NCBI GenBank assembly: GCA_016700375.1
Contig: CP065016.1
Location: 60,001-92,000, forward strand
Direction: 5' to 3'
From: Candidatus Saccharimonadota bacterium
Lineage (GTDB): Bacteria; Patescibacteriota; Saccharimonadia; Saccharimonadales; UBA4665
Length of the DNA: 32,000 bases
Within the stretch, counting starts at the first letter, position 1, and every line of letters starts with the position of its first letter. Shown in pieces: positions 9,790 through 10,141 of the stretch. The notes under the pieces were generated by a model that saw nothing but the letters and a program-made list of their open reading frames with translations, searched no databases and was not told the DNA's origin. The position numbers and the translations under genes are program-made.

Positions 9790-9828
9790 CTAGGCTCTAT
9801 ATTACTCCGCAACAGGTTAATCCTTTAC

Positions 9829-10067
9829 AACCTGAATCTCAAAACCCTTCCTGCTATACCGTGCTGTCATCCCAGCGAAGGCTGGGATCCAGATGAAAAA
9901 CACACTAGATTGTATCCTAAAAGAACCAAGCATTGCCTGAGCGGGCATATACTTGGTTCTGGAGGAGAGCGAGCTACTATCCTGGATTCAGCTGGATTCC
10001 CGCCGGAGTTTACCCTCGACTTGATTGAGGGCGGGAATGACACTTTGGAGGTTTTGAGATTCAGATT
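9829..10067. mobile_element. MITE copy 1 (239 bp)
   Basis: Terminal inverted repeats are aacCTGAATCTCAAAACC ... GGTTTTGAGATTCAGatt. It is flanked by the 4-bp direct repeat TTAC (9825-9828 and 10068-10071). Each arm contains a GTCAT-type hairpin. The arms are near-identical to the copy at 20752-20877, in the opposite orientation. Confidence 0.8.
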
Positions 10068-10141
10068 TTACAGAACTGACTTAACCGTAATGATGACCTC
10101 TGGAGTTATTTGAATGCTATTTCTTTCAATTTCGAAAATCA

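Follow-up and report, generated by a model that had tools for sequence, protein, structure and literature searches.

A putative IS982-type MITE carrying a pair of SRM-like hairpins in a Saccharibacteria genome

Just downstream of uvrB in a Saccharibacteria genome lies a short repeat whose two arms are hairpins headed by GTCAT. What kind of element is it, which enzyme could have placed it there, and what would its hairpins bring to the sites where it lands? The genome (G000) is a closed single contig of 1,256,494 bp with 49.7% GC, placed among Saccharibacteria (Saccharimonadales) by the names of its closest protein hits. The stretch of 32,000 nucleotides analysed here (G000:C1:60001-92000) is called the window, and coordinates are those of the window unless marked as genome positions. 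Judged from sequence comparison, the repeat is very probably a non-autonomous IS982-family MITE with a doublet of Ssn-related motif (SRM) hairpins as its cargo, putatively mobilised in trans and cut by Ssn-like nucleases. The two ingredients are already known separately: IS982-derived MITEs (PMC9769881) and the SRM/Ssn system (PMC11893778). A search of the literature turned up neither their combination nor Ssn/SRM in Patescibacteria.

Anatomy and insertion sites of the element

A search with the end sequence finds two copies in the window and four in the whole 1.26-Mb genome:

Copy 1: genome 69829-70067, in the window
Copy 2: genome 80752-80877, in the window
Copy 3: genome 123513-123636
Copy 4: genome 223094-223217

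The copies are non-coding and 124-237 bp long, and they end in 17-bp inverted repeats with 0-2 mismatches between the arms. Copies 2 to 4 are mutually 95-98% identical, and copy 1 has both arms in common with them. The original prediction that one arm differs by a single base between the two window copies holds over 64 nt (98.4% identity). The sole open reading frame over copy 1 is a 67-aa frame with a TTG start. The window copies and their flanks are composed as follows:

9824-9829: left target-site duplication of copy 1, TTTACA (same hexamer at 10067-10072)
9830-10066: MITE copy 1, 237 bp, AC...AT ends, 40 bp downstream of uvrB
9830-9846, + strand: left terminal inverted repeat of copy 1, ACCTGAATCTCAAAACC
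9866-9892, + strand: SRM-type hairpin variant 2 of copy 1, GTCATCCCAGCGAAGGCTGGGATCCAG, which fits the published SRM pattern
9893-9991: 99-nt centre of copy 1, including a hairpin at 9922-9933/9949-9960 (AGAACCAAG)
9992-10041, - strand: SRM-type hairpin variant 1 of copy 1 with a 27-nt loop, GTCATTCCCGC-CCTCAATCAAGTCGAGGGTAAACTCCG-GCGGGAATCCAG
10050-10066, - strand: right terminal inverted repeat of copy 1, GGTTTTGAGATTCAGAT on the + strand
10067-10072: right target-site duplication of copy 1, TTTACA
20747-20752: left target-site duplication of copy 2, TCAGTA
20753-20876: MITE copy 2, 124 bp, at a site that is empty in the nearest relative, G041
20778-20804, + strand: SRM hairpin variant 1 of copy 2, GTCATTCCCGCGAAGGCGGGAATCCAG
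20814-20840, - strand: SRM hairpin variant 2 of copy 2, GTCATCCCAGCGAAGGCTGGGATCCAG on the - strand
20877-20882: right target-site duplication of copy 2, GCAGTA, matching at 5 of 6 positions

The ends are specific to the element. The 15-mer CTGARTCTCAAAACC, allowing at most one mismatch, occurs four times in the window, each time at an end of one of the two copies, and in 100 shuffles it gave 0 matches. Genome-wide, its exact and 1-mismatch occurrences are confined to the eight ends of the four copies. The idea that these are chance palindromes or an assembly artefact can be virtually dismissed: the shuffles yield no ends, four copies of 95-98% identity stand at unrelated loci of a closed single-contig genome, and related copies occur in independent assemblies, namely one activated-sludge metagenome contig (L213) and no fewer than 8 of the 26 congeners.

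The boundaries were set as AC-CTGA...TCAG-GT, the form found in related full-length insertion sequences. Tetramers (TTAC and CAGT) had at first been read as the duplicated targets, with element limits at 9829-10067 and 20752-20877. Both copies are there and both tetramers do flank them, as substrings of 6-bp duplications, and with AC...GT ends the limits move to 9830-10066 and 20753-20876. The 4-bp model was rejected, as with these ends the hexamers are perfect in most copies, and likewise in both parents, ISa and ISc. The hexamers agree at 6 of 6 positions in copy 1 (TTTACA) and in copy 3 (GAGCGA on the + strand, TCGCTC when reoriented), and at 5 of 6 in copies 2 and 4. Congener copies have perfect duplications in 9 of 14 cases (eight of 6 bp, one of 8 bp). 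Further copies have TCTAGA (on G041 contig C28) and TATTCA (on L213). The duplication is thus 6 bp long, occasionally 5 to 8.

Two pairs of filled and empty sites back insertion. In the nearest relative, G041, the flanks of the copy 2 site are 95-97% identical to those in G000, and the gap between dnaE and the convergent CAP-domain gene measures 44 bp, against the 172 bp that hold copy 2 here; a single hexamer, TCATTA (TCAGTA in G000), marks the empty site, and the alignment runs through the junction. Conversely, L213 is filled, with TATTCA duplicated, at a place where G000 (genome position 749744; flanks about 90% identical) has one TATTCA in uninterrupted sequence. For copies 1, 3 and 4, no clean empty site was recovered in G041, G002, G003 or G023, because the intergenic DNA is unalignable or synteny is broken in these genomes. 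Among metagenome contigs, none matched the predicted empty site of copy 1 exactly, and comparison of the G003 copies with G000 recovered no clean junctions. Terminal inverted repeats, target duplications, several copies, no coding capacity and two filled/empty pairs together bear out the earlier call of a MITE, including its expectation that copies would recur in the genome and its relatives and that the duplicated bases would be single at orthologous empty sites.

Copy 2 overlaps the stop codon of dnaE. The TAA (20751-20753) consists of two duplicated target bases (TA) and the first A of the element; G041, which is empty at this site, ends dnaE with TAG at the same position.

Copy 1 has two peculiarities. 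The extra internal sequence noticed at the outset is its 99-nt centre (9893-9991) with the AGAACCAAG hairpin; the other copies have 9-10 nt there. Over a piece of 66-75 nt this centre shows 100% identity to a repeat that stands at the ends of three G041 contigs (C76, C7 and C32). The piece has no match elsewhere in G000 or in the 25 other congeners, and the centre probably derives from another repeat, as a nested or recombined fragment. The second peculiarity, first described as a 25-nt insertion in one hairpin loop, is a loop of 27 nt in place of GAAG. The large loop is real, and as a hairpin variant it is recurrent rather than an event specific to copy 1: it is also present in MITE copies of G041 (C28), G003 (L025, L032) and L213, thus in different sublineages, and in solo SRM hairpins. 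This recurrence suggests loop-targeted insertion or gene conversion. A 27-nt loop (...GAGGGTAAACTCCG) in place of GAAG is also seen at genome positions 469427-469478, 502892-502943 and 1214071-1214122.

IS982-type ends and the supply of transposase

Members of the IS982 family, as described in ISfinder, are about 1 kb long, have ends beginning with AC and make duplications of 3-9 bp. The mobilising enzyme had been left without a name in the original prediction, which suggested looking for a longer element with the same ends. A pattern search of the genus finds such elements: the ends (ACCTGARTCTCAAAACC) lie 905-927 bp apart in G017, G002 and G006. The left repeat of copy 1 (ACCTGAATCTCAAAACC) is the same as the ends of the IS982-family elements in G017 and G006, save for A/G at position 7. 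The G017 and G002 elements encode intact 273-aa transposases (open frames of 282 and 279 aa), and the G006 element is frameshifted. The two intact cognate transposases score 136.6 and 147 bits against the NCBIfam IS982 model (NF033520), whose cut-off is 130 bits, and the G002 element is flanked by a duplication of TGTATA. The mobilising enzyme is therefore putatively of the IS982 family, and the call is one at family level.

G000 itself has nine IS982-family genes, none of them with the exact MITE ends, and even the closest resident transposases share only about 50% identity with the cognate one. The nearest resident element, ISa, lies outside the window in two identical intact copies of about 906 bp (139.7 bits on the IS982 model) with 6-bp duplications, TATTAA and AATAAC. 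Its ends (ACCTGAATCACGAAACT) agree with those of the MITE at 14 of 17 positions, the outer 9 bp being the same, and a MITE copy in G041 has an intermediate end, CTGAATCACAAAAC. The IS982-type elements compared are 902-927 bp long with AC ends and 6-bp duplications (TATTAA, AATAAC, TGTATA).

The similarity between the MITE and these insertion sequences is limited to about 25-30 nt at each end, the outermost 16-17 nt matching. Full-length IS982 copies have no SRM or GTCAT hairpins inside; the cargo, therefore, was not inherited from the parent element. The closest published counterpart is MITECca01 of the Cardinium endosymbiont cOegib, a short non-coding IS982-derived element of about 240 bp. 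In both cases the inverted repeats match an IS982-family parent, and MITECca01 is thought to be kept in trans by that parent (PMC9769881). The present MITE likewise has IS982 end identity, AC ends and 6-bp duplications. It differs in that its IS-like sequence is confined to about 25-30 nt per end, an SRM doublet filling the remainder, whereas the consulted passages of the MITECca01 paper describe no hairpin cargo, and the word 'hairpin' is absent from it (PMC9769881). It differs also in that the cognate insertion sequence is absent from G000, and that G003 has no IS982 transposase. The complete genome of G003 holds at least 13 MITE copies, and a search of it for an IS982-family transposase at E<=1e-5 found none. 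The MITE family is orphaned in G003, which speaks against the proposed route of mobilisation.

The hairpin pair and its wider family

The hairpins resemble a published motif. The Neisseria Transformation Sequence (NTS), CGTCATTCCCGCGMAVGCGGGAATCYRG, with a consensus that allows 1 mismatch, and the degenerate SRM are ssDNA targets of small GIY-YIG nucleases (SsnA), whose ssn genes typically have an SRM motif on both sides (PMC11893778). Variant 1 of copy 2 (GTCATTCCCGCGAAGGCGGGAATCCAG and the preceding T) matches the NTS at 27 of 28 positions. Seven of the eight hairpins in the MITE copies fit the SRM pattern, and the one with the big loop fails on loop length. The SRM pattern has 23 sites in G000, compared with 2-8 in simulated genomes, and 7 of the 23 fall within the four MITE copies. 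The interior of the element is thus an SRM/NTS hairpin pair, facing inward. GTCAT hairpins had been seen as the arms of this MITE, and so they are, but they are not peculiar to it, being a pan-bacterial NTS/SRM repeat. The exact 27-mer of variant 1 occurs at more than 120 loci in many phyla, including Pseudomonadota, Planctomycetota, Dehalococcoidia, Nitrospirota, Patescibacteria and Rickettsia, often as inward-facing doublets. The likeness to the NTS/SRM-SsnA system extends to the small GIY-YIG genes of G000 with inverted hairpins on either side, as in the NTS-ssnA-NTS layout; the difference is that here a hairpin pair is packaged between the ends of a DDE transposon. The words MITE, Saccharibacteria and Patescibacteria are absent from the paper (PMC11893778).

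In G000, GTCAT-headed hairpins number roughly 50 copies of several stem types, with compensated stems. Two base pairs, each fully compensated (T-A to C-G and C-G to A-T), separate variants 1 and 2, so that the local hairpins are kept and the complementarity of arm to arm is lowered. As ssDNA, the minimum-energy fold has the arms paired with each other and not as two local hairpins, a point against the reading proposed here. The hairpins of the MITE copies are a sublineage of their own, as told by a GAAG loop together with the TCCCAGC variant. Type-A hairpins have GAAG in the MITE copies and mostly GCAG when solo or flanking candidate ssn genes, and within G000 the TCCCAGC variant is found in MITE copies only. 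In G003, by position and loop type, about half of the 23 type-A hairpins have the GAAG loop of the MITE copies.

Two further MITE families in G000 combine ISa-type IS982 ends with GTCAT-hairpin arms of a different stem sequence. Their members, all outside the window, are:

Genome 347496-347711: ISa-end MITE
Genome 353188-353424: ISa-end MITE
Genome 496759-496915: ISa-end MITE
Genome 601570-601728: ISa-end MITE

Perfect 6-bp duplications (TGAAGA, TTATAA and ATTATA) were read for three of them, not for 601570-601728.

Could the doublet have spread by itself, like a REPIN, through an enzyme acting on ssDNA (Ssn or a Y1/RAYT transposase), the IS982-like ends being incidental? REPINs and BIMEs with their RAYTs are also hairpin doublets dispersed in intergenic DNA. 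Inverted SRM doublets without MITE ends are present in many phyla, the IS-like look of NTS-ssnA-NTS has been remarked on (PMC11893778), Y1 transposases are encoded in G000, and G003 has its many copies in a genome devoid of IS982 transposase. We nevertheless consider this very unlikely. Duplications of fixed length that abut AC...GT ends in most copies are the signature of a DDE transposase and not of single-strand 'peel and paste', and the match between the ends and full-length IS982 elements covers 16-17 nt, similarity reaching on to about 25-30 nt. The three identical IS200-type copies of the genome stop short of the nearest GTCAT hairpins, and no such hairpins flank its diverged Y1 genes. 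The MITE differs from REPIN/RAYT systems also in that the head of its hairpin is GTCAT and not GTAG, and in its target duplications. A link to RAYT or IS200 was rejected, no Y1 gene being flanked by GTCAT hairpins.

The three identical IS200/IS605-type elements are 678 bp long (Y1 transposase, 130 bits) and lie at about genome 58983-59660, 204102-204458 and 223848-224204. The first ends about 340 bp before the window. One copy is about 440 bp away from MITE copy 4, with its transposase gene at a distance of about 630 bp, and another is 23 nt from a solo hairpin pair, with the hairpins beyond the identical region.

The preference for an IS982-type MITE has also to be weighed against a domesticated structured element, either an sRNA like WsnRNA46 of Wolbachia or a hairpin for transcript ends or stability after uvrB and dnaE, in which mobility would be the origin only. 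The Rfam family WsnRNA46 (RF02625) shares with the MITE an inward-facing doublet, GTCAT...GGGATCCAG / CTGGAT...ATGAC, and matches copy 2 with an E-value of 1.5e-7. At z about -8.8 the fold is highly stable, and both window copies stand just past gene ends, copy 2 rebuilding the dnaE stop codon. The score, however, is 41.9 bits, far under the gathering threshold of 65.3; the flanks differ, the match rests on the common hairpin doublet, and Rfam has no match to copy 1. The element has neither a T-tract terminator nor a promoter signal that exceeds shuffled expectation, and the closest relative has no insertion at the copy 2 site. We regard domestication as improbable, and the IS982-type MITE as the better description.

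Candidate nucleases and a possible route of hairpin spread

Are there enzymes in G000 that could cut these hairpins? The genome has five small GIY-YIG genes (PF01541), two of which are flanked by inverted GTCAT hairpins (genome 708952-709173, type A, and 166985-167212, type B/C). One of the five is in the window:

28918-29232, + strand: GIY-YIG gene, 104 aa, single-domain, candidate Ssn-type nuclease or paralogue

It is preceded by a hairpin-like repeat, GTCATTCTGAGCGAAGCGAAGAATC, that is outside the published SRM pattern. The spacing of Tyr, Tyr and Glu in the GIY-YIG proteins is that of Y6, Y17 and E64 in SsnA, shifted by one residue, and the genes are 63-65% identical to hairpin-flanked GIY-YIG genes at other loci. 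A search of the GIY-YIG protein against PDB sequences gave no match, and among NCBIfam models three of the GIY-YIG proteins matched none but for one sub-threshold hit to a group I intron endonuclease.

We propose the following sequence of events. An IS982 DDE transposase acting in trans would bind the MITE ends, and a 6-bp staggered cut would integrate the element. Since the cognate insertion sequence is missing from G000, the donor there would be either ISa, through cross-recognition, or a cognate copy now lost. Each transposition would then plant a hairpin doublet, which, when single-stranded, would offer one correctly oriented SRM on either strand as a substrate for the candidate Ssn-like GIY-YIG nucleases. 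By analogy with Neisseria, cutting at the doublet may shorten the single-stranded DNA that comes in during natural transformation. Saccharibacteria are naturally competent (PMC10633639), which makes an effect on the recombination of incoming DNA plausible. In sum, the mechanism is that of an ordinary MITE and it is the cargo that is unusual: as the interior is two copies of a putative Ssn-target hairpin, the element probably spreads cut sites.

It has been left open by what route NTS/SRM hairpins reach hundreds of copies, and the resemblance of NTS-ssnA-NTS to an insertion sequence was only speculated on (PMC11893778). This one small genome has three IS982-type MITE families, all with GTCAT-hairpin arms. 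Together with the share of GAAG loops in G003, they offer a concrete and testable route of dissemination. They would also bring Patescibacteria, a group in which natural transformation now serves as an experimental tool, into the range of the Ssn/SRM system. We suggest, tentatively and with doubts that outweigh our confidence, that IS982-type MITEs are the main vehicle by which Ssn-target hairpins are multiplied and relocated in this genus of Saccharibacteria. If so, a DDE transposon disperses the sites that an unrelated ssDNA nuclease recognises, and thereby reshapes the loci at which incoming DNA is cut in naturally competent, ultrasmall bacteria. In a stronger form, the hairpins or Ssn would themselves contribute to the mobility of the MITE, which would explain the expansion in G003 without an IS982 transposase.

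The hairpins show some further arrangements. On L118, from a Rickettsia endosymbiont, nested doublets at 592-723 and 1642-1769 have type-A hairpins around type-B/C-like ones that are nearly identical to those in G000; both stem types are therefore common to different phyla. The window has one solo pair:

25556-25623, + strand: two solo SRM-type hairpins that belong to no MITE, one of type A (25556-25582) and one of type C (25596-25623)

This direct tandem of type A and type C, ending in CCTCC, occurs at least six times, including the window pair and genome positions 5742, 59683, 402937 and 1214147. Read on the opposite strand, the tandem gives GGAGG followed by ATG, a short frame and TGA.
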